Below are positions 3,822-61,749 of a DNA stretch of 64,000 nt, in pieces. The notes under the pieces were generated by a model that was not told the origin of the DNA, did not search any database, and worked only from the letters and a program-made list of their open reading frames with translations. Source of the stretch: Octopus vulgaris (lineage: Eukaryota); the NCBI GenBank assembly GCA_951406725.2, contig OX597818.1, positions 61,566,001 through 61,630,000 on the forward strand, given 5' to 3'. Position numbers and translations under genes: made by a program. Positions within the stretch are counted from its first letter, which is position 1, and every line of letters begins with the position of its first letter.

Positions 3822-4555
3822 TTTTATTCTTTTACTTGTTTCAGTCATTTGATTGCAGCCATACTGGAGCACCACCTGTAGTTGAGCAAATTGAAACCTA
3901 CGACTTATTCTTTGTAAGGCTAGTACTTATTCTATCAGTCTCTTTTGCTGAACCGCTATGTTACAGGGATGTAGACACACCAGCACTAGTTGTCAAGCAA
4001 TGTTGGGGGGACAAACATACAAACACACACACACACACATATATATACACACACACACACATACATACACACACAGATATACACACAGACACACACATAT
4101 GCATACACATACACACACATATGCATACACATACACACACACACATATGTATATATATATATATATATATATGTCTGTAAATATAAGAGAGTTAACGTTA
4201 AATAGGTTAACTCTAGTGCTAGAAATAGCTCCTCCGGTATAATCGCCGATGATACCTCCACATAGAAATAGCACTACCCTCAACGTAAGGAAAGTGAAAT
4301 ACAACTAAAAAGTGGATTAATATTAGTTGTATTTCCCTTTCCTTACGTTGAGGGTAGTGCTATTTCTATGTGGAGGTATCGGCGGCGATTATACCGGAGG
4401 AGCTATTTCTAGCACTAGAGTTAACCTATTTAACGTTAACTCTCTTATATTTACGGATAAATATGTATTGTCTCCCTGGTTTATTGTGCTAGGTCGCTTG
4501 GTGTTAAAATAAGGGTATTATTAAATTAATATCTAATTTTTCACCCTCATTTTTG

Positions 4556-9260: not shown

Positions 9261-9373
9261 CTATATCATAAAGACATAGCTAAAATATTTTCTCAGACTC
9301 TACCTCAGCATGGCTATATTGTTTTATCTTGATCTTTCAGTTTGGTTGTTAGTTCATTCCCCCTTTTAATTTA

Positions 9374-9600
9374 CCTATTTCTTTATTACCCACAAGGGGC
9401 TAAACATAGAGGGGACAAACAAGGACAGACATAGGTATTAAGTCGATTACATCGACACCAGTGCATAACTGGTACTTAATTTATTGACCCCGAAAGGATG
9501 AAAGGCAAAGTCGACCTCGGTGGAATTTGAACTCAGAACATAAAGACAGACAAAATACCACTAAGCATTTCATCCAGCATGGTAACGTTTCTGCCACCTC
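9374..9600 (-). mobile_element. tRNA-derived SINE family B (Meta/Nin-like central domain)
   Basis: Reverse complement of GTCGACTTTGCCTTTCATCCTTTCGGGGTC...AAGTACCAG core; matches 9765-9993. Confidence 0.88.
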
Positions 9601-9764
9601 AGAAACAGAGTAGTTAATGTTTAGTTTGAATGATAGCAGGGTATTTGTACTACTGGGAATTTAGGGAGCATTCTGACAAGCAAGTAGCTGTAGAAAAGGT
9701 TTAGTAGACAAAATATTTGGTACAAGTTGTTGGATGTGAAACAGAATATAATTAAGTTAAAAAA

Positions 9765-9993
9765 GGCTGCGAGCTGGCAGAATCGTTAGCACGTTGGGTG
9801 AAATGCTTAACGGTATTTCATCTGTCACAACGTTCTGAGTTCAAATTCCACTGAGGTCGACTTTGCCTTTCATCCTTTCGGGGTCGATAAATAAAGTACC
9901 AGTTTCGCACTGGAGTCGTTGTAATTAACTTAATCCGTTTGTCTGTCCTTGTTTGCCCCCTCTATGTTTAGCCCCTTGTGGGCAATAAAGAAA
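9765..9993 (+). mobile_element. SINE family B
   Basis: Same core; target duplication ATATAATTAAGTT on both sides. Confidence 0.9.
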
Positions 9994-12900
9994 TATATAA
10001 TTAAGTTCAAATAAGCAGCAAAGATGATTGTAGTAGCAGCAAAGAAGTGTAAATAAATTTTCAGAGTGGGAAGTAATGTGTGTATAGGTGTGGTCAGTCA
10101 TGGTGGAGGAGTATATAAGCCAATGGTAGGGCCATTTTGGCACTGCCTATTTGGTGTCCCTGATGCCATACTGACCCCCACCCACGTTCTCTCTCCCAGC
10201 ATATTTCTCTATGTGTATGAAGAGAGAGAAAGTGTGTATTTTAATTCTGTTCAATTGATAAAGTGTAATGTCACTCCCTGTCCTTCTCTAGTTCTCTTTA
10301 TGGGTGGGAGCATATTTCTCCATACAGATAAGGAGAGAGAAAGTGTTTGTAATGTCTCTCTCTCTCTCTCTCTCTGTATCTCACTTTCTGTCCATATGTG
10401 TATGTTTCTAGGCAAACACTTGCCATGAAGTACTGCTGGAAAACATGCGGAATGTCCTCTCAGCCACACCAAATGATCACCCTCCAAACAGCTGCACCAA
10501 ATCATCTTACTCTAATGTAGGAGAATGCTCATGAGACAAATTCTCAAATAATGCTACCTGGGACATGTATATATATATATATATATACATATGATGGTTA
10601 AGTGGCCAGAATGTGTTAACTAATTTTAAGTGGTTCATATTTGTACATTTTAAAAGATATGCAATAGTTAAGATATGACATATTTGCAAGCTCTGAAACA
10701 GAATCCCTGCTTTTGTAGTGCAGTGTTGACTAGATACAAATATTGGATCACTATAAAATGTTATTTATTCTGTTTTACAAGATCTAACATTGATAGAAAA
10801 TATAATTTTAGTGACATGTTATTCATGGTTATGCAAATTTGTTTCCCTTAGGCTACAATATTTTTCTTCACAACTAGTAGAAAGTACAGTATAGATAAAA
10901 TTCACATGTTGAAACTAGGAAGATGTTCAGAGGTTATGGAATATTCTAAAATATTTGCTTTTTTAAATATTTTATTTTATTTAGCTTCCTTTATTGTATT
11001 TTTTTTTTTAATATTATAAAAATAAAGCATAAACAATTCAAGGCTACTATTAGAAAAGTTCCATGTACTGTTTGCCATCAACATTGAGAGAATTTTCAGA
11101 GGAATGGCTCTAACTTGAAATCAAAACTTAACCATAGATGCAGTTCTCCCAAAACTTATAAAAGTAACATCTAAGTCGATAGATATAGTCAAATATCACA
11201 CTTTAGTTAAAACACATTAATTGCTATCCAGATACTACTAACAATAAATTTATTAAAAGTTCATATTGGTGATTTGTGTCATTAGTATTGCAAATAACCA
11301 AACATGAAGCTATCCAAATGGATTCATATGTAACTGTCATTACTACAACTGGTAATAGGTTTCTTAGATACACTTCAAATAGAAACTATCTTTGCTTTCC
11401 GAGCTTTGAATAATCAAATACCAATAAACAAATAATAAACATGGCAATAGGCTAAATGTTCCCTCCTTTGCAGTCGACCATTCACAAACCAAAATGATTT
11501 CCAAATAATTGACCTATTTACCATAGAGACAAGTAAACCAACATTCATTCCTAATTTTACCCAAAATGAGACCAAATATTTTCAAAGGAACACATATGAA
11601 GACACTCACAGTTTATAAATTACTGCAATGGATATTTGGTTTGATCACATCAGTGGATTTGTCATAATGTTTCACCCTCTAATTGCTGTTTACAAATGTA
11701 TATTATTATATATAATTGCATTTATGTCTGAGCTAGATGAGTCTGTAATGCAGTACATCACTATACATCTTCATCTAATGTTATCTCTTCCATAAATCCC
11801 AATGTTGTTAAGTGTCTTCTATCAACTAGATTTTCTATCAATGTTTCTTTTTTTTTTTTTTTTTTTTTTTTGTTATGTTATGCTCTCATATTCATGATAT
11901 TACTAAACTGCTGATATCTCTAGTTGCATATCAAAGGTTAGTTTTGTTAATATTTAGAGAAGGAGAGAAAAAAAAAAAAAGGGAAAAATAGAAAAACAAG
12001 AATATACTTCAAGAGATGGAAAAAAAAATACGAAGTTGTGATGGTGGAAGTTTAGCAGATGCATGGCACACAGAGAGAGGGTCAAATAACTATGATAATC
12101 ACAGATAGTGCTCCTGATGTGCATTATGAAGAACAATACTGTGCACTCCAGCATGCACTGATTTAATGTAGGGGGGTGGAGTGTAGCATTTTTATAGGTT
12201 GCTTGTTTTTCAATTCCCAATCTATTTTTCAATTCCTGTAGGTTTTGGTGGTGGCCACAGCAGAAACAGGAAACATAGGGGCAGAAAATAACTCTTAACT
12301 AGTTTAACACACATTATATGAATCCCAGGACAGTGTTTGGGTCTAACGAGTGTATTGATGCTGCTGCTATTGTGTGAATGTGTATGTGTGCACACATGCT
12401 TGCAAGCTCTTTAAGGTGTATAGAATGAATGGAAAGAGAAGATTTTAAGATGTCATAATCACATTCATGAAACGAAGATATACCTAAGCATGATTGTACA
12501 TGTACTGAAAAGGACAGGTAGCAAATATCCAGGTGGTTTTTGGGAGTATTTTCATTTTATTGCATTGATTGATCTGCAAGAGCCATTTATGTGCATCAGT
12601 TGATGATGGGATTTCTGTTGTCTTAGATTCTTTATATCTGTGAGGAAATGTCTGCTATCCAGATAGAATTGGTATAGTCTTGAAGACTCCAAAATATTGT
12701 TCTTACACAAGTGTTACTTTTTTTGTGTTGAGCAAATTGTTGTACCTGTGGATGCTCAAAGTGTCCTTCATGAGTGTGTTTAGCTTTCTTAATTAGCTCT
12801 TCTTTGTGTGCTAATAAATGCTGTAAAGGTGGTCTATGTAATTCCTGGTGTTTTCACACTGTATGCATATCAATGTGAGTAGTATCACCATTTTGTAAGA

Positions 12901-18890: not shown

Positions 18891-19204
18891 GTATAAGAAC
18901 AATGATTATCTGTATCAATATAGCTGTTATTGAGACAACTAGAAATATTTAAACACTTAAAGGAACAAAAAAAAAAACCCCAAAAACTTGCAAATAACCA
19001 ATATTCTCGATCTACATCATAAACAGACACAAAATAAACTTAACTGGTTATCTAAGATTCTTCAATGTAGCAATAAATGCATTTCGAAATTGTGTCTGTC
19101 TTCATCTGATGTCCCTCCAAATACATAGTAACAATTAAACCATGCATATCTTAGATATCTTACAGATGATGATGATGATGATATATACATACATACATAT
19201 ATAC

Positions 19205-20275
19205 ATATTCATACACACACACACACTACACACATGTATGTATATGTGTGTGTGACCAAATGTGTATCTGTATGACTCTATAGTAGAAGACACACTAACC
19301 AAGCCTTACAGATGGGTTGAATGTAGAACTATACGGTCGAAAAACAAACTTCTTATCCACATAGCAATATCTATGATATGTTGAAAACAAAAGCTATTCT
19401 TACAGAGGTTTGCATGAAGTAAAATAATGAAATTTAAAATTAGTTTAACACCATTCAGATACGTTTATGTTGATATACACATACATAAGCAAGACCGAAC
19501 TAGGCAGCACCTAATAAAAGAATTAGTTTGAAGACATTATTATAGAAATAAGTCCATCAAAGTTTATGTATAATTCCATAGACTAATTAGTTAAAAATCA
19601 ATTTTCTTCTGTGAGAAGTTCAGTACCAACAAATGTTTCCCGTTATATGTGTAAGAACACAACGCACACTTGTTTCCATGTCTTTCCAGAGAAATATTCA
19701 ATATAAGCATGAGATAGTCAAGTATGTTATAATCAGTTAATGTGTGAGGAAGAGGCGGGGGGTGGGTGGCGGGACAGATAATGGAGGGCATTAGAATCGT
19801 AAATGACATTATTAGTTCTTACTGTTCAAACACAGAACTGCATCAACAATACCAGATGACGAGATGAAAATAGCAATGGTAGATTTGTAATTTAATGCAA
19901 ATGCATGCACGTGTGCGCATCCACTGTTAATGAGTTGGAGCACTACGCTAGGTACAGCAATTAGGTAAGGTGAATTTCCTTAAATGCTAAGCTGAACAAT
20001 AGAAAAAGCTAAATATCCTTGCCATTTAATTGTTAAAGAGCAAGGTGAAGTTTCACATAAAATACTGGTATTAATGGAAATTTAAGAAATGCTGTAAAGG
20101 AGGAACACGAATATTGCTATGGGGTTAAAAAGTTTGTTTTTCGACCGTATAGTTCTGCATTCAACCCAACTGTAAGGCCTGGTTAGTGTGTCTTTTGCTA
20201 TAGTCATACAGATACATGTCTGGTCACACAAACACACATATACATGTGTGTGTGTGTGTGTATGAATATGTATGT
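19205..20275. repeat. Local inverted duplication (~170-bp arms, 19205-19380 and 20111-20275) of a degraded SINE A head
   Basis: Both arms share private sequence, e.g. GGGTTGAATG(T/C)AGAACTATACGGTCGAAAAACAAACTT and CATAGCAATAT, not seen in other family A copies. Confidence 0.8.
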
Positions 20276-20344
20276 ATGTGTGCATGTGTATATATATGTA
20301 TAAGTGTGTGAGTGTATGCATACACACACACACACATATATATA

Positions 20345-22266: not shown

Positions 22267-22714
22267 ACTTTAGGTACTTCTATTTACAAAACTCTAGAAC
22301 ACATTATATTCTGGCCTTAGAATATAGATAGATCATCATCGTTCTACCAGGCACTTTCTCGTGCTCATACAGTCAAATGGAATTTGTTGAGAAAGATTTT
22401 CTACAGCCAGATGTCCTTCCTATTACCAAACAGGTTACTAATTCCCTAAGTTCAGAAATGTTTTCACAACAGACTGGAAATGAAGAACACTGCTTATGTG
22501 ACAGTGACAGCTGTTTACATGCATCACATAACAAGATAATACTAACACACACACACCCTCAACAAGCTTCTTTCAGTTTCCATATGCCAAATCCACTTAC
22601 AAGGCCTTAGTCAGCCCAGGACTATAGCAGAAGACACTTGCCCAATACGTTACACAGTGGGACTGACCATGAAACTATGTAATTGGAGAAATAACCAATT
22701 ACTGCATCATATGA

Positions 22715-23512
22715 CCTCAAGGTACTGTCACATTGCCTGCAGGACATGCAAGATAAGGTAGACCACCCGACAGGAACTTCACGGCAGGTGGGCTTGAGGA
22801 TCAGCCAGGAAAAGACAAAAGTGCAACGTATCAACAACAAGCAGGAAGAGCCAATCACAATCAAGGGGGCACCTGTGGGGGATATTAGTGAGTTTATCTA
22901 TCTTGGCAGCAAGTTCAGCAAATCAGGTGGATCAAACGAGGACATCACGGCAAGAAGCAAGAAGACTTGGCAAGCCTTCGCTACTTTTTCGCCAGTTTGG
23001 AAGTCCACTGCAATCTCAACTTGAACTAAACTCCACTTATTTAGTTCAAACGTAAAACCTGTGCTTTTTTATGGCTCTGAAACATGGAGAGCCACCTGCA
23101 GCAATTACAAGAAGATCCAGACTTTCATCAACAAATGTCTCCAGCAGATCCTCCACCTGAAGTGCCAAAACACCGACCTATGGGAAAGGTCCAACCAGGA
23201 GCCCATACATGTTCAGATTAGATGAAGGAAATGGAGATAGATCGAACACACACTATGGGAAGAACCCTCAAATGTGACATAACAAACACTTGACTGGAAC
23301 CTGCAGTGGGAAAAGGAAGTGCGGACGCCCGAAGCAGACATGGAAGCAGAGCATTTTGGACGAACTCAGGATCAGTGGCCTGACATGGGAAGCAGCCAAG
23401 AAACACGCCAATTAAAAGTAGAAGATACATACATACATACACACAAAAAGTAGAAAACAACTGTCAAGGCCCTATGCTCCACAAGGGGTCAAAAGGATTA
23501 AGAAGAAGAAGA
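22715..23512 (+). mobile_element. 5'-truncated RTE-clade LINE (RT C-terminal region, pseudogenised)
   Basis: Translates to VGLRISQEKTK, EFIYLGS, LFSSNVKPVLFYGSETW, KALCSTRGQKD*; (AAG)n tail; target duplication C(A/G)TCATATGA; stops and frameshifts. Confidence 0.92.
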
Positions 23513-31427: not shown

Positions 31428-31842
31428 ATAATCTCGTTTATAATCTCTTGGCAATAAGTAAATTTTGCATCATTACAGGGTGATTATAGACCACACCCAC
31501 ATATCATCCATAAAAATGGAAGACTACCTGAGCATGAATGTAAGGGTCACAGTTTGTTAGTGCAGCAAGCATCAACCCCCCAACATCTCCTGCCACTACA
31601 TACACAATCATCTCCAAACACAGACATATAGAGAACACCTACTAATACTACTACTTGCTGAAAATACTCTCTTCCCCACTTAGCTGGAATCTAATAAACA
31701 CAGAGGCAGACATAGCTGCATCAACAATTATTTCAGTAACCCCAAATAGTGTTGTGTCTGGGGAGAGACATTTTCTTTTTTGTGCCTTATAATGTAACAC
31801 ACTCACTGGTAAAATTTCTACTTATTTCTTATTTTCATTATC

Positions 31843-31879
31843 CTGAAATTTTCGTTGCGTCTTGCAACCTTTTCAATAG
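31843..31879 (-). ncRNA. Minimal type I hammerhead ribozyme motif, U3-A8 variant
   Basis: CTA-TTGAAAA-G-GTTGC AAGAC GCAAC-GAAA-ATTT-CAG; perfect 5-bp stem II; stem I is intact (CTA/TAG) only in the sister arm. Confidence 0.55.
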
Positions 31880-31939
31880 TCTTGACTATGGCCTTGCTGG
31901 AGCACTGCCTATAGTCGAGCAAATCAACCCCAGTCAAGA

Positions 31940-31976
31940 CTACTGAAAAGGTTGCAAGATACAATGAAAATTTTAG
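31940..31976 (+). ncRNA. Degenerate sister copy of the P2 hammerhead motif
   Basis: CTA-CTGAAAA-G-GTTGC AAGAT ACAAT-GAAA-ATTT-TAG; CpG-type decay in stem II. Confidence 0.45.
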
Positions 31977-32429
31977 GAAAATAAAATAAGAAATAAGTGG
32001 AAATTTTACCGGTGAGTGTGTTACATTATAAGGCACAAAAAGAAAATGACTCTCCCCAGACACAACAGAATATGCTTCAACACACGAACTCATATAAAGA
32101 ATCTTGCAAACCAAATCCAAAAACCCAAATAGTGTATTGTGATACAAACCCCTAACAAAGAAAGAACCAACAACTGCTGTGTTCTGATAGCGTTTGCAAT
32201 GCCCACTTCTGCTGTAGACATTGTAAATTCCATCTTCAAGTACACAGATATCATAACCATTTAACATCCATTTCAGCATGTGATAAATGATCTGGCAGGA
32301 GCTGGTAAGGCCGGGAGCCATACCAGGCTAAAGTAGAGGGAATGCCACATGTCCAGTCTCTCCACTGCAGCCTATGATTTCAGAGTATCCAGTAAGGTCT
32401 CCAGCTAGGAAAGTAGCAGCAGGATCATG

Positions 32430-32740
32430 ATCATCATTGTTAAGCATCCGTTTTCCATGCTAGCATGGGCTGGACGGTTCGACCGGGGTCTGGGAAGCCA
32501 GAAGGCTGCACTAGGCTCCAGTCTGATCTGGCAATGTTTCTACAGCTGGATGCTCTTCCTAACGCCAACCACTCCGTGAATGTAGTGGGTGCTTTTTACG
32601 TGCCACTGGCACAGGTGTCAGAGGAGGCTGGCAAACGGCCATGATCAGTTGGTACTTTTTACGGGTCACCAACACAGATGCCAGTCAGGTGGCGCTGGCA
32701 TCAGCCATGTTCGGATGGTGCTTTTTACGTGCGACCGGCT
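32430..32740 (-). mobile_element. Retroposon family C
   Basis: Reverse complement of core and internal repeats; inverted relative to 32945-33296. Confidence 0.88.
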
Positions 32741-32944
32741 TGCGTATTAATGATATAAATAGAAAAACAGATGCAGAGGTTGTGTCAAGTTAATTGGTCA
32801 ACAACCTGCGCATTATAGCATTGGTCAAACACAGCTGACCTTCAACTACACAACAAATACAGCAAGTGGCATACACAACTAGAAAAGAGATAAAAAGCAA
32901 CATTACGTATCACAGAATAATACATATCACGTCAACACCAGCAT

Positions 32945-33296
32945 CAAAATAAAAATCAAATGGAAATTGTAGTCATGATACCCATGCCTGTGGCACGTAA
33001 AAAGCACCATCCGAATGTGGCTGAAGCCAGCACCGCCTGACTGGTGTCCATGTCGGTGATATGTAAAAAGCACCAACCGACTGTGGCCATTTGCCAGCCT
33101 CCTGTAGCACGTAAAAAGCACCCACTACAATCACGGAGTGGTTGGTGTTAGGAAGGGCATCCAGCTGTAGAAACAATGCTAGATCAGACTGGAGCCTGGT
33201 GCAGCCTCCTGACCTCTCAGACCCCGGTCGAACCGTCCAACCCATGCTAGCATGGAAAACGGACGTTAAACGATGCCGATGATAATGATGATGATG
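32945..33296 (+). mobile_element. Retroposon family C
   Basis: Three GTAAAAAGCACC-type repeats, core, (GAT)n tail. Confidence 0.88.
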
Positions 33297-33865: not shown

Positions 33866-36393
33866 GCTTTATTCTATTCCTAATTTGACATTAATGTTGC
33901 ACAAAATTTAATGAGAATGGATGATGCCTTATAATGATTTCTGACAAAAATTTAAAACCGATCTTTCAAAAACAACATTTTATGCCAGTTACTCTTATAC
34001 TAAGACGTTAGGACACTCCCTTAAAGGTTAAGATAAAGATGAAATCCATCAATCTATAGTGCAGAATACTAAATATATCTCAAAATCATTAATTTATTGA
34101 ACGAAGATTTATTCAACTTCAAAATAGTAAACAAAGTCTGGTACCCCAACCGCATCTCATATAAACTGATATGGTTTAACCCTTTTAATACTAATCTGCC
34201 CGACATGACCCCTGGTCCTATGGCACAGACTTATGTTTCCTTTGCTTTCTTGGCCTTATTTCCAAGGAGCACCAATTTTAAACGAAGAAAAATTTACGCT
34301 GATAAAATGTTACTTTAGATATTCACAGAATTTTTTCTTGTATTTGTTTCGGTCATTTGACTGTGACCATACTGGAGCACCGTCTTCAGTTGAGCAAATC
34401 GATCCCAGGACATATTCTTTGTAAGCCTAGTACTTATACTCTTTTGCCAAGCTGTTAAGTTACAGGACATAAGCACTCCAACATCAGTGTCAAGCGATGG
34501 TTACACACATATACATATACAATGGGCTTTCGACATCTAGTAAAAACCCATCCCCTTTTTTTTCCCTTTGTCTTGCTAGTTGCTTGGCAACTTCAGCTTC
34601 AGTCATCATCATCATCAACATTTAACATCCATTAAATGGGTTGAACGGTTTGACCAAAGCTGGCAAGATAGAAGGCTGTACTAGATTCCAACCACCCAGT
34701 ACGTTTATTGTAAAGAGGTAGGCATAAAGAAGGGCAACAACCATGGAAGCCATGCCAAAACTGACATCAGGGCCTGACACAACAGATCCTGTCACACCAT
34801 CCACACATGCCAGCATGGCAAACAGATGTTAACTGATGACGAGGATAAGCAAGTGGGCCTTTATAATCTTCCTCCTCTACAGTATAGACAAATTTAAAGA
34901 GAATGTGGCTGCTACTTCTAGCAAACCAAGTCACTGCCTAAGATCTCTTATATCGGATCATTTAAAATTCGGAGTATATTTTAGTTGTTTTGCCTTGGGT
35001 CAGCCATGAAGAAGTTGACCTATAATCAAAAATATGTCTCTTTTCATTTTAAGCACAAAATATGGGCTCAAGTCACCTCATAGTTGCAAGAAAGTTGGAA
35101 ATTCTTGCTAAAAAGAAAGAAGGAATATAATTCTATGCTTTTCGCCTCATCTTCTTTTGTACAAAATCAACCGGTTGCATAGGCGTTTCCATTTTTTTTT
35201 TTATGCCTAATGATAAATTTTTGGAATGCTTGGTTTCCAATTTGCTATGGCTTTTATTTTTCTTTCAAAGATCATGTATTAAAAATGAGGAAACCTTTCT
35301 TTATAAAAATTGCATAACTTCCAAAACATTATCAGCATCAACAGTTGGTGCACTTTTTTTTTTTTATATATATATATAGAAAGAATCTCAATTAGTTGAA
35401 GACTCTAGATTAAAAAAATAAAAATGTAAAAAAAAAAAAAAAAGATAAACAATAATGATAAATATATAGGATGAAGACAAAATACACGTAAGCATTTTTA
35501 CATTTACATTTATTTTCATCAAATATTCCTTTGCTGACAATTTCGATACTTGTTGACTGTACAAGTCTGAAATATGGAGATAATGGTTAATGAAATTCAG
35601 GAGGCACCATAGCTCATTCCAGTCTTTAAAGAGCATTTTGATATACAACGACTCAAGATGTGAGAAATATTTGGCTGATGCAAATCTTTATAATGTTAGA
35701 GCAGCTTAATGCAAAGCAAAGGAAATAAGTCAGAATGATACAGCAGTATGTTCCGATGATCGATGGATGCACATCATAAATGGAAGTGTTTGGAAAGTTT
35801 ACAGAAAGACAATGGCAAGATCAAAGGCGATATTTGAAAGCAATGATAGATCTCTGAGTAAAGAATTTCATGGAAGTGTTAGGTTTATTAGAATTATTGA
35901 GTGATGTTGGAATGTAAATGAGAAGACAATGTGTTGTTGGCTTTAGTAAAAGCTGTATTTGCACCAATGAACCTGGCAGAGTTGTTGACATAAGAGAACT
36001 ACAGTTCAAACAATTTGCAAGTAATTGACCAGTAACCAATATTTATAACTTTTATAAATGGAAAGAGGATAGTTTATGAAAGGCTCAGTTGAGAAATGAA
36101 TTGTTACAATAGATTTCTATTTATCTGTGTTGAATAAATTAGCCTTGAGATTATTAACACACATAAATATATAGTGATACTGCAAAAGAATTAACACATT
36201 TAAAGCTAAACTCTACGGTATATTTTTATAGCACTTCATTTCCATTTCTTTCTGTTATGAATATGAAGTTTTATGTTAAAACAGTTATTATTTCATCAGT
36301 TCCCAAAGTTTTAAGTGCATGGACACAAAACCATTATTGGACAGGTGTCAGGGTTATCACTAACTTTTCTGTACGATAATTTGAACCAATTAC

Positions 36394-36705
36394 GGAGATG
36401 TACTTGCATAACAAGTGACCTGATCTGAGATAGTGTGCTGAAACAAAAACAGTTGCAGCACAGAAAGTGTTAATAAGCCATATAAAAAAAAAAAGAAACA
36501 CACACAAAAACCGTTAGATTCATTTCAATATTTAAATTTGATTTGTCAAAATATTTTTCTGTGCTGCACGGAATTTTGTCATTGAACAGATCGTGGTTTT
36601 AAAGTGACAAAAATATTTTGATAGATTAAATTTAAATGTTCAAGTGAATCTAATGGCTTTTGTGTGTTTTTAAATGGTTTATAAACACCTTCCATGCTGC
36701 AATTG
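36394..36705. mobile_element. Asymmetric fold-back element, family P3 (putative Penelope-like pLTR derivative)
   Basis: Inverted arms ~36452-36557 and 36610-36704, extension 36394-36451, 16-bp target duplication AATTTGA(A/G)CCAA(T/A)TAC at 36378 and 36706; homologous to 61187-61382. Confidence 0.8.
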
Positions 36706-37220
36706 AATTTGAGCCAAATACTACGAAAGATGCTAAAACATTTAGAGACATGTTACTAACTGCAGTGAACCAATCCACAATGAAACTGCTGTTTATAGAC
36801 AAGGGTAACTAGATCTTTGTGATTATTGCTGGCATTAGAGTGTAATGCCAATAATAAGATACCAATCACTGACCCTTGGTACCCTGCACATCTGGTTATC
36901 GTCACTGTTAAAATTAGGAGTTTTAGCAGTTGTCCAGTTGCAAACAGGTGAAGGACATGGACAGAATATGGTTTAATAGTCAACTTATTACGATCTTAGA
37001 TTAAGAGGTTTAAGTTAAAGAAATAAGTATTGTTAACACATACACACATAGTGTTGGCATGAAAGGTAGAATATGTTGTTAAATGGTTTGAATTAATGAA
37101 ATGAAAAAAAAACCAAAAAACAAAAGCGTGTTACAATGTTATCATATAATAGTGGTTACACAAGGGTAAAGCCACAGATGCTATTTAGAACTCCTGCATA
37201 TTGGTTGGAGTATTTATTAA

Positions 37221-61186: not shown

Positions 61187-61382
61187 GCACAAAATTTTGT
61201 CAGTGAACAGGTTGCGGTCTCAAAGCGCGAAAATATTTTGACAAATTAAATTTAAATATTGAAGTGAATCTAATGGTTTTGCGTGTTCCTTAAATGGCTT
61301 ATAAACACCTTCCATGCTGCAATTGTTTTCGTTCCAGCACACGATTTCAGATCAAGTCACTCGCTATGCAAGTACATCTTCG
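61187..61382 (+). mobile_element. Solo copy of family P3
   Basis: Colinear with 36566-36704 and with the reverse complement of 36394-36451. Confidence 0.85.
61196..61245 (+). ncRNA. Minimal type I hammerhead ribozyme motif, G3-C8 variant
   Basis: TTTGTCA-GTGAACA-G-GTTGC GGTCTCAAA GCGC-GAAA-ATATTT-TGACAAA: perfect 7-bp stem I, stem II, GAAA, palindromic AATATT stem III, UUU triplet. Confidence 0.62.
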
Positions 61383-61749
61383 AAATGAAATAATGTTATT
61401 TTATTAGAAATATACCACCTGTTTTGTAAAAGGGTTAAATGATTGACATATTTAAGCCAGATGTAATGAACAAGGAACATAAATGAAGTAGTTATGCAAA
61501 AATGGACTTGTGTTATTACAGAAGTAGAGCAATTGAGTGATGTATATTCTTTTATATACACAAAAGAAATGATTTTGTACCTGCTTAATATGCGAGACAG
61601 ATACAGGTTCAAAAATTAAAAATCAGATTCCTATATTTCAGCATAAGAGAGCAATGGGCTTACATAATCAATACAAAATGCAACACACATTGCAAACAGA
61701 ACATCTATACCTTCTAAGATTTATTTTTGCCTTTACTAAATCTTTGCTT

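Follow-up and report, generated by a model that had tools for sequence, protein, structure and literature searches.

Positions 31741–32135 of the 64-kb window (the whole stretch of Octopus vulgaris DNA analysed here) hold, with a probability of about 0.85, a 5′-truncated head-to-head pLTR insertion of a high-copy Penelope-like retroelement (PLE), which carries two worn, predicted minimal type I hammerheads and belongs to a family, here called P2, with the consensus pair U3-A8. As a locus it is ordinary genomic debris, and both the hammerhead variant and the layout of the insertion are already published; its value lies in adding a data point to the question of what hammerheads do for PLEs. Related families with different 3–8 pairs and matching ends suggest that the pair is kept by selection. 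In this genome there are high-copy ribozyme families that a search for the CUGANGA core overlooks.

Architecture of the insertion

The window is rich in A+T and in repeats. Within it, the insertion spans 31750–32123 (374 bp) and is built of two inverted arms with hammerheads on opposite strands: a left arm on the minus strand (31750–31887), which is an inverted, short-ended copy of the element end, and a right arm on the plus strand (31932–32067), which is a direct copy. The arms differ at 11 of 138 columns (8%). Between them lies a plus-strand filler (31882–31933) that overlaps the left arm by 6 nt and the right arm by 2 nt, and that matches 11 other places in the window at E ≤ 0.006; we take it to be a SINE fragment. 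On one side only, the arm continues into a 56-nt tail (32068–32123, plus strand), beyond which the family runs for about 4 nt. Depth of the family contigs described below begins near 31750 in all four runs, and over the tail it exceeds 1 million up to 32124 and then collapses (runs X1 and X2), so placing the family sequence past the palindrome on the right only, to about 32124–32128. The flanks carry a 12-bp direct repeat on the plus strand (31741–31752 and 32124–32135), the sole word of at least 8 nt shared between them; its left copy reaches 3 nt into the arm end. Among 5000 random windows with this geometry, 77 have 12 nt or more in common; here the position of the repeat, 31741 and 32124, agrees with both family ends.

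An inverted, 5′-truncated head-to-head copy, a tail at one end and a target site duplication, which are marks of an endonuclease-bearing PLE insertion, are all present. The target duplication, tail, likely ORF start and SINE filler, a context that the initial annotation had missed, together indicate an ordinary truncated retroelement insertion. Penelope elements are described as inserting as an inverted 5′-truncated pLTR with a tail at one end and an 8–10 bp target duplication; the first 12 to 22 ORF codons lie inside pLTR and tail, and unrelated DNA is captured between pLTRs (PMC3846280, PMC8557442). P2 shares with endonuclease-bearing PLEs the head-to-head arms, the one-end tail, the duplication, the captured DNA and, probably, an ORF start in the pLTR that is extended by the tail. 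For the anole element PAc, reverse transcription starts 111–118 nt after the start of stem II, with the tail lying between two internal start sites (PMC11167929); a short end about 115 nt from stem II is common to PLEs and P2, in which the distance is 117 nt. The P2 insertion differs from the known ones in its longer tail (56–61 nt, against 30–40 nt in endonuclease-bearing PLEs), in its ATG, which stands 95 nt downstream of the stem II start rather than at it, and in its filler of presumed SINE origin; P2 is known here without a full element.

Known Penelope biology suggests how such a locus would form. The element endonuclease would make a staggered target cut, here with a 12-nt stagger, and the reverse transcriptase would prime cDNA on both strands from two fixed internal RNA sites, giving the short and the long end. 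Both cDNA copies would stop about 11 nt upstream of U3, and repair would bridge the two 5′ ends with a SINE piece. In an active element, two hammerheads may pair through their AAUU palindrome and cut after U17, probably with the help of the element protein. Self-priming on an antisense template is a published alternative for head-to-head junctions (PMC3846280).

Joints in the family contigs show the same layout: at least 11 of the 15 listed (378 further) link 31879–31888 to an inverted arm starting at 31944–32088, and the strand changes at no fewer than 6 of the 15 listed left-arm joints (11 further). The arms of the insertion both stop at one base (31887 and 31932), which lies 11 nt before position 3 and has many other junctions only a few bases away. 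On the sense strand, the family sequence immediately before this stop finishes with CAG, a possible splice acceptor or RNA 5′ end; a consensus splice donor, GTGAGT, lies at 32012–32017, between the hammerhead and the ATG. At another locus (X1 joint 31884 to 31853), a 38-nt junction filler resembles a second abundant SINE-like repeat, and a 16-nt piece of it has four matches in the window (9526, 9830, 18051 and 49367) at up to 2 mismatches where 0.11 are expected; SINE pieces may recur as junction filler.

The ATG at 32046 opens 26 codons that run from the arm through the tail (32046–32123, plus strand) and, judged by a codon alignment to 61309–61380, are likely the first 26 of the element ORF. 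The peptide gave no meaningful database match, and it may yet have a close protein relative; its two matches, unrelated repetitive proteins, were discarded. The corresponding peptide of the related family described below gave no usable match in an atlas search. Pattern scans of two metagenome collections and of genome and viral contigs returned 0 matches and no full-length copy, and neither these scans nor the peptide searches found an RT or GIY-YIG ORF of the family, the insertion itself being truncated. In the tail, several of the family's polymorphisms sit at third positions not of the 32046 frame but of a different one, and the common ones include changes that are non-synonymous in the 32046 frame. 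These third-position polymorphisms suggest a second open frame at 31997–32125, for which there was no homologue and no Pfam match, and which scores 5 of 23 identities against the related family. As the searches reached neither a longer copy nor a protein match, and some tail polymorphisms fit another frame better, P2 is possibly a non-autonomous derivative of a PLE. Contig depth over 32000–32124 is two to three times that over the hammerhead, from which further subfamilies would share the ORF start and tail. Elsewhere in the window, a 109-codon open frame (22695–23024) has a weak match to DUF6451 (E 0.008, below the cut-off) and is probably a LINE remnant.

Hammerhead motif and family consensus

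Read outward from the centre of the insertion, each arm presents stem I, core, an extra G, stem II, GAA, AAUU and U17 in the same order. In the left arm (31843–31879, minus strand) the 5′ half reads CTA and the core TTGAAAA, with U3 at 31876, A8 at 31871 and the extra G at 31869; then follow stem II (GTTGC/GCAAC, perfect over 5 bp) with the loop AAGAC, GAA, the palindrome A15.1-A-U-U16.1, U17 at 31846 and CAG, in which the closing pair of stem I is broken at 31845. The right arm (31940–31976, plus strand) is decayed: it reads CTA, CTGAAAA, G and, after stem II, GAAA ATTT and TAG, with C3 (31943) opposite A8 and U17 at 31973, and two stem II pairs are damaged, a G-U standing at 10.1–11.1 and a C-A mismatch atop the stem. 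The initial annotation had described this layout in both arms, with U3-A8 on the left, C3/A8 on the right, a stem I of 3 bp and neither arm perfect, and the letters bear it out.

A strict descriptor in the published style (Watson-Crick 3–8 pair, G10.1-C11.1, at least 4 pairs, GAAA) matched the left arm and nothing else in the 64 kb, and gave any match in 2 of 200 block-wise dinucleotide shuffles of the window; relaxed descriptors gave about 20 matches in the window. Rfam covariance models gave no hammerhead match at E ≤ 10, and their output for the window consisted of sub-threshold microRNA matches driven by repeats and hairpins, which we set aside. The left arm has the features of a metazoan PLE minimal type I hammerhead, namely NUGANNA with a Watson-Crick 3–8 pair, GAAA, U16.1 and H17, and the right arm departs from NUGANNA and the 3–8 pair by one change. 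One unpaired base after A9 and a stem II opening with G10.1-C11.1 are also found, as are a short stem I and a palindromic 15.1–16.1 segment for dimer pairing. Stem III of the motif is all A-U and stem I has 3 bp only. In folds of the monomer, the core is paired with the 3′ strand (z −1.7 and +0.4); for a read-through RNA across both arms, a single hairpin of −211.6 kcal/mol is predicted. Each copy is without a required pair, the two are oppositely oriented, and such an RNA should fold as a long hairpin; both hammerheads at this locus are therefore probably inactive.

We took the family consensus from sequencing contigs mapped to the locus, 36056 in run X1 and 29824 in run X2. The left arm alone drew 8522, 4679, 3188 and 2519 contigs in four runs of four organism codes. 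Dividing summed depth, which is itself no copy number, by single-locus depth, we infer very roughly 2000 to 60000 copies. The raw-read runs X22 (5 reads) and X23 (92 reads), which had no read covering the left arm, were left out of the counts.

In the family, stem I is CUA/UAG: the pair broken at 31845 is restored in 98–99.7% of depth. At 31965, C is the majority (85% in X1 and 52% in X2 contigs), and C11.1 is the majority state as well, its sole change being of CpG type at 3–7%. Position 3 was read from the X1 and X2 tallies of changes at or above 5%, in neither of which it has a row of its own; the left-arm contig listing is apparently blind within about 31 letters of the ends of the stretch, and its silence at 31859–31889 was disregarded. 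Every A>G and A>T change of at least 5% in X1 and X2 was assigned to other places, leaving none at 31876, and the share of U3 is at least 78% (X1) and at least 76% (X2) even if all right-arm depth is counted as C3. At A8, the T>C and T>A changes were all placed elsewhere in X1, which alone fixes this state, X2 having one T>C and one T>A row beyond those listed; each run has three C>T rows beyond those listed. At other loci, too, the junction letters read U3. Thus two points on which the initial annotation had hung its reading went in its favour, the P2 consensus at position 3 being U and not C, and stem I being present in the family. The arm defects fit decay of this copy, not the state of the family.

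On a third point two comparisons pull in opposite directions, and neither shows the motif to be significantly more conserved than the rest of the arm. Between the arms, the motif differs more, at 5 of 37 positions, three of them at CpG sites, against 6 of 101 elsewhere (p 0.16); in the family it has fewer common changes, as polymorphisms of at least 10% fall on 1 of 37 motif positions and 14 of 123 others (p 0.19). Clipped alignments at 31846, considered as copies starting at the cleavage site, are explained by the private differences of this copy at 31836–31845. Junction letters show one subfamily with CUG, not CUA, before U3.

The closest published counterparts come from PLEs of other animals. 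Cervera and de la Pena (2014) reported natural U3-A8 PLE hammerheads, about 1300 motifs in Schistosoma, and in their paper the U3-A8 pair, the extra base after A9, the 3-bp stem I and the AAUU/U17 end are all already present (PMC4209133); natural U3-A8 covariation is reported in PMC3088659 as well. Among the U3-A8 minimal hammerheads of Cercyon PLEs in Schistosoma mansoni, family Sm(4) has the identical 7-nt core UUGAAAA; with P2 these hammerheads share one unpaired base after A9, G10.1-C11.1, a 3-bp stem I, a four-base palindromic stem III and U17. Pairs of motifs on opposite strands, as here, are likewise reported, 100–700 bp apart (PMC4209133). P2 differs in its palindrome (AAUU against ACGU in Cercyon) and has a stem II of 5 bp, and its extra base is G where the published consensus is H, with G in the Nasonia row. 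A molluscan hammerhead, that of the Crassostrea gigas PLE (PMC4209133 Fig. S3), resembles P2 in its 3-bp stem I, 5-bp stem II, 5-nt loop and GAAA followed by AUU and U17, and differs in its canonical C3-G8 core and extra A. The hammerhead alignment of PMC4209133, in the part of the paper used here, has no cephalopod row, and no title on a cephalopod U3-A8 family appeared among the literature matches listed; the word 'ribozyme' is absent from the main text of the O. vulgaris repeat paper. The article by Lunse, Weinberg and Breaker (RNA Biol 14:1499), reportedly the main paper on small PLE hammerhead dimers, may list more 3–8 variants. Having all the sequence features of a PLE minimal hammerhead, P2 is predicted to work like one and is a new family of a known kind.

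The related family and the 3–8 pair

The initial annotation had set P2 beside a second family, P3, which it described without coordinates and called unrelated; we matched P3, by the layout described, to 61187–61386 (plus strand), with a hammerhead at 61196–61245 and an ORF start at 61294–61386. The copy at 61203 has a G3-C8 core, the extra G, an AAUAUU palindrome and a 7-bp stem I. A decayed head-to-head insertion of the same family lies at 36389–36705, with its tail on the left and an 11-bp duplication with one mismatch (36378–36388 and 36706–36716); its right arm, the copy at 36582, has U3 opposite C8, so that the G3-C8 state of the family rests on one of two informative copies in the window.

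Nucleotide BLAST gave no link between P2 and P3, and here the claim that they are unrelated holds; it fails at the level of codons. BLASTP of the two peptides gave no alignment, and a blind six-frame search gave P2–P3 scores of 36 and 40 against a mean shuffled maximum of 37, not above shuffled queries. Once anchored on the element ends, the ORF starts give an ungapped alignment with 10 of 24 residues identical, 6 of them through synonymous codons. Nucleotide identity at codon positions 1, 2 and 3 is 15, 17 and 8 of 24, and positions 1 and 2 together exceed position 3 (32 of 48 against 8 of 24, p 0.011). Ten identities were reached by 2 of 20000 random segments (9 frame pairs, 11 offsets, with 3 self hits aside), and those two may be P3; the peptide match is significant only when anchored on the element ends. 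The decayed copy at 36389–36705 gives 7 of 24. The ends themselves correspond: after a shared leucine codon, the short ends follow at 16 and 17 nt and the long ends at 77 and 78 nt in the two families, and from the start of stem II the short and long ends lie at 117 and 173–178 nt in P2 and at 115 and 176 nt in the related family.

By these measures P2 and P3 look like sister families, in which case U-A and G-C at 3–8 are covariation at homologous positions. Although there is one contrast only, such covariation would speak for selection more strongly than convergence. Of the earlier argument that two compensatory solutions at this pair imply selection, the covariation with a G3-C8 family stands and the independence of the families apparently does not. 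The full proposal, that P2 and P3 are sister PLE families with different Watson-Crick 3–8 pairs (U-A and G-C) and with the ORF start and both RT start sites in exact register, so that hammerhead catalysis and not just the fold is selected, is one we advance tentatively, at somewhat short of even odds. If true, catalysis would be selected in the life cycle although it is dispensable in the sole in vitro system, and core variants occurring naturally in one genome would form a series for testing the reason why PLEs keep a ribozyme.

Alternative explanations and further repeats

The two most serious alternatives accept the insertion and the hammerhead. P2 could be a non-autonomous, retrozyme-like repeat of a few hundred bases inserted by Penelope enzymes, with the short ORF as a relic; the insertion mechanism is then the same. 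Animal non-LTR retrozymes are, like P2, small, high-copy, tied to PLEs and equipped with type I hammerheads (PMC7229834; bioRxiv 10.64898/2026.07.22.740005), and they derive from pLTRs (bioRxiv 10.64898/2026.07.22.740005), which, together with the failure to find an ORF-bearing copy or protein match and with common tail polymorphisms that are non-synonymous in the ORF frame, gives this idea some standing. Yet the codon-position pattern shared with the related family points to past protein selection (p 0.011), a likely ORF start is present, and P2 has a minimal hammerhead of PLE type (3-bp stem I), where retrozymes usually have canonical ones (PMC7229834). Tandem monomers of 150–400 nt with hammerheads in the same orientation, which define non-LTR retrozymes, are absent from this locus, the only one to which the statement applies, where the arms are inverted. 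We consider this origin unlikely on balance. Less likely still is that the U3-A8 family descends from a working ribozyme and no longer cuts, the element spreading without cleavage and the motif being passive. Minimal PLE hammerheads are inactive alone and weak as dimers, P2 has a stem I of 3 bp and a stem III of A-U pairs alone, and the motif shows no significant excess of conservation. The PAc hammerhead cut only with its own protein and was partly rescued by C3G/G8C, and in vitro its mutants left insertion unaffected and no RNA ends appeared at the cut site (PMC11167929). On the other side, the related families keep a Watson-Crick 3–8 pair in two forms with the other core letters intact, and U3-A8 ribozymes are active in vitro (PMC3088659).

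Two further ideas carry very little weight beside a PLE insertion with a U3-A8 family consensus. Chance resemblance in A+T-rich DNA, inside a fold-back element or MITE, would suit the empty Rfam result and the 20 or so matches to relaxed descriptors, but the strict descriptor was matched in so few shuffles, the layout recurs in a second family at an equal distance from the ends, and an asymmetric tail with variably truncated inversions is not a MITE feature; we regard it as very improbable. A host regulatory device, in which a hairpin or paired-ribozyme switch is under selection at the locus, is marginally more improbable again: the read-through RNA would form a hairpin of 211 kcal/mol, but in both motifs there are disabling changes, three of them at CpG sites, which most of the family does not have; 8% of columns differ between the arms, and no host gene was located near the insertion.

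In the raw reads of run X23, the same 29–30 nt flank 32049–32124 on both sides, an arrangement not seen in X22, which suggests that the element tail forms a tandem repeat of about 105 nt; the extra piece, with GAAAC, an 8-nt palindrome and GUA, resembles a hammerhead 3′ half. The descriptors used found no hammerhead motif in the window's other palindromes, at 4163, 9366, 19181 and 32424. The one at 4163–4468 is a near-perfect 306-bp palindrome (92%) beside a microsatellite, and those at 9366–10004, 19181–20293 and 32424–33289 are inverted pairs of common interspersed repeats with unrelated spacers. An inverted duplication at 1184–1360 and 2531–2933 is 95% identical, its right copy being split by an inserted repeat of about 220 bp.
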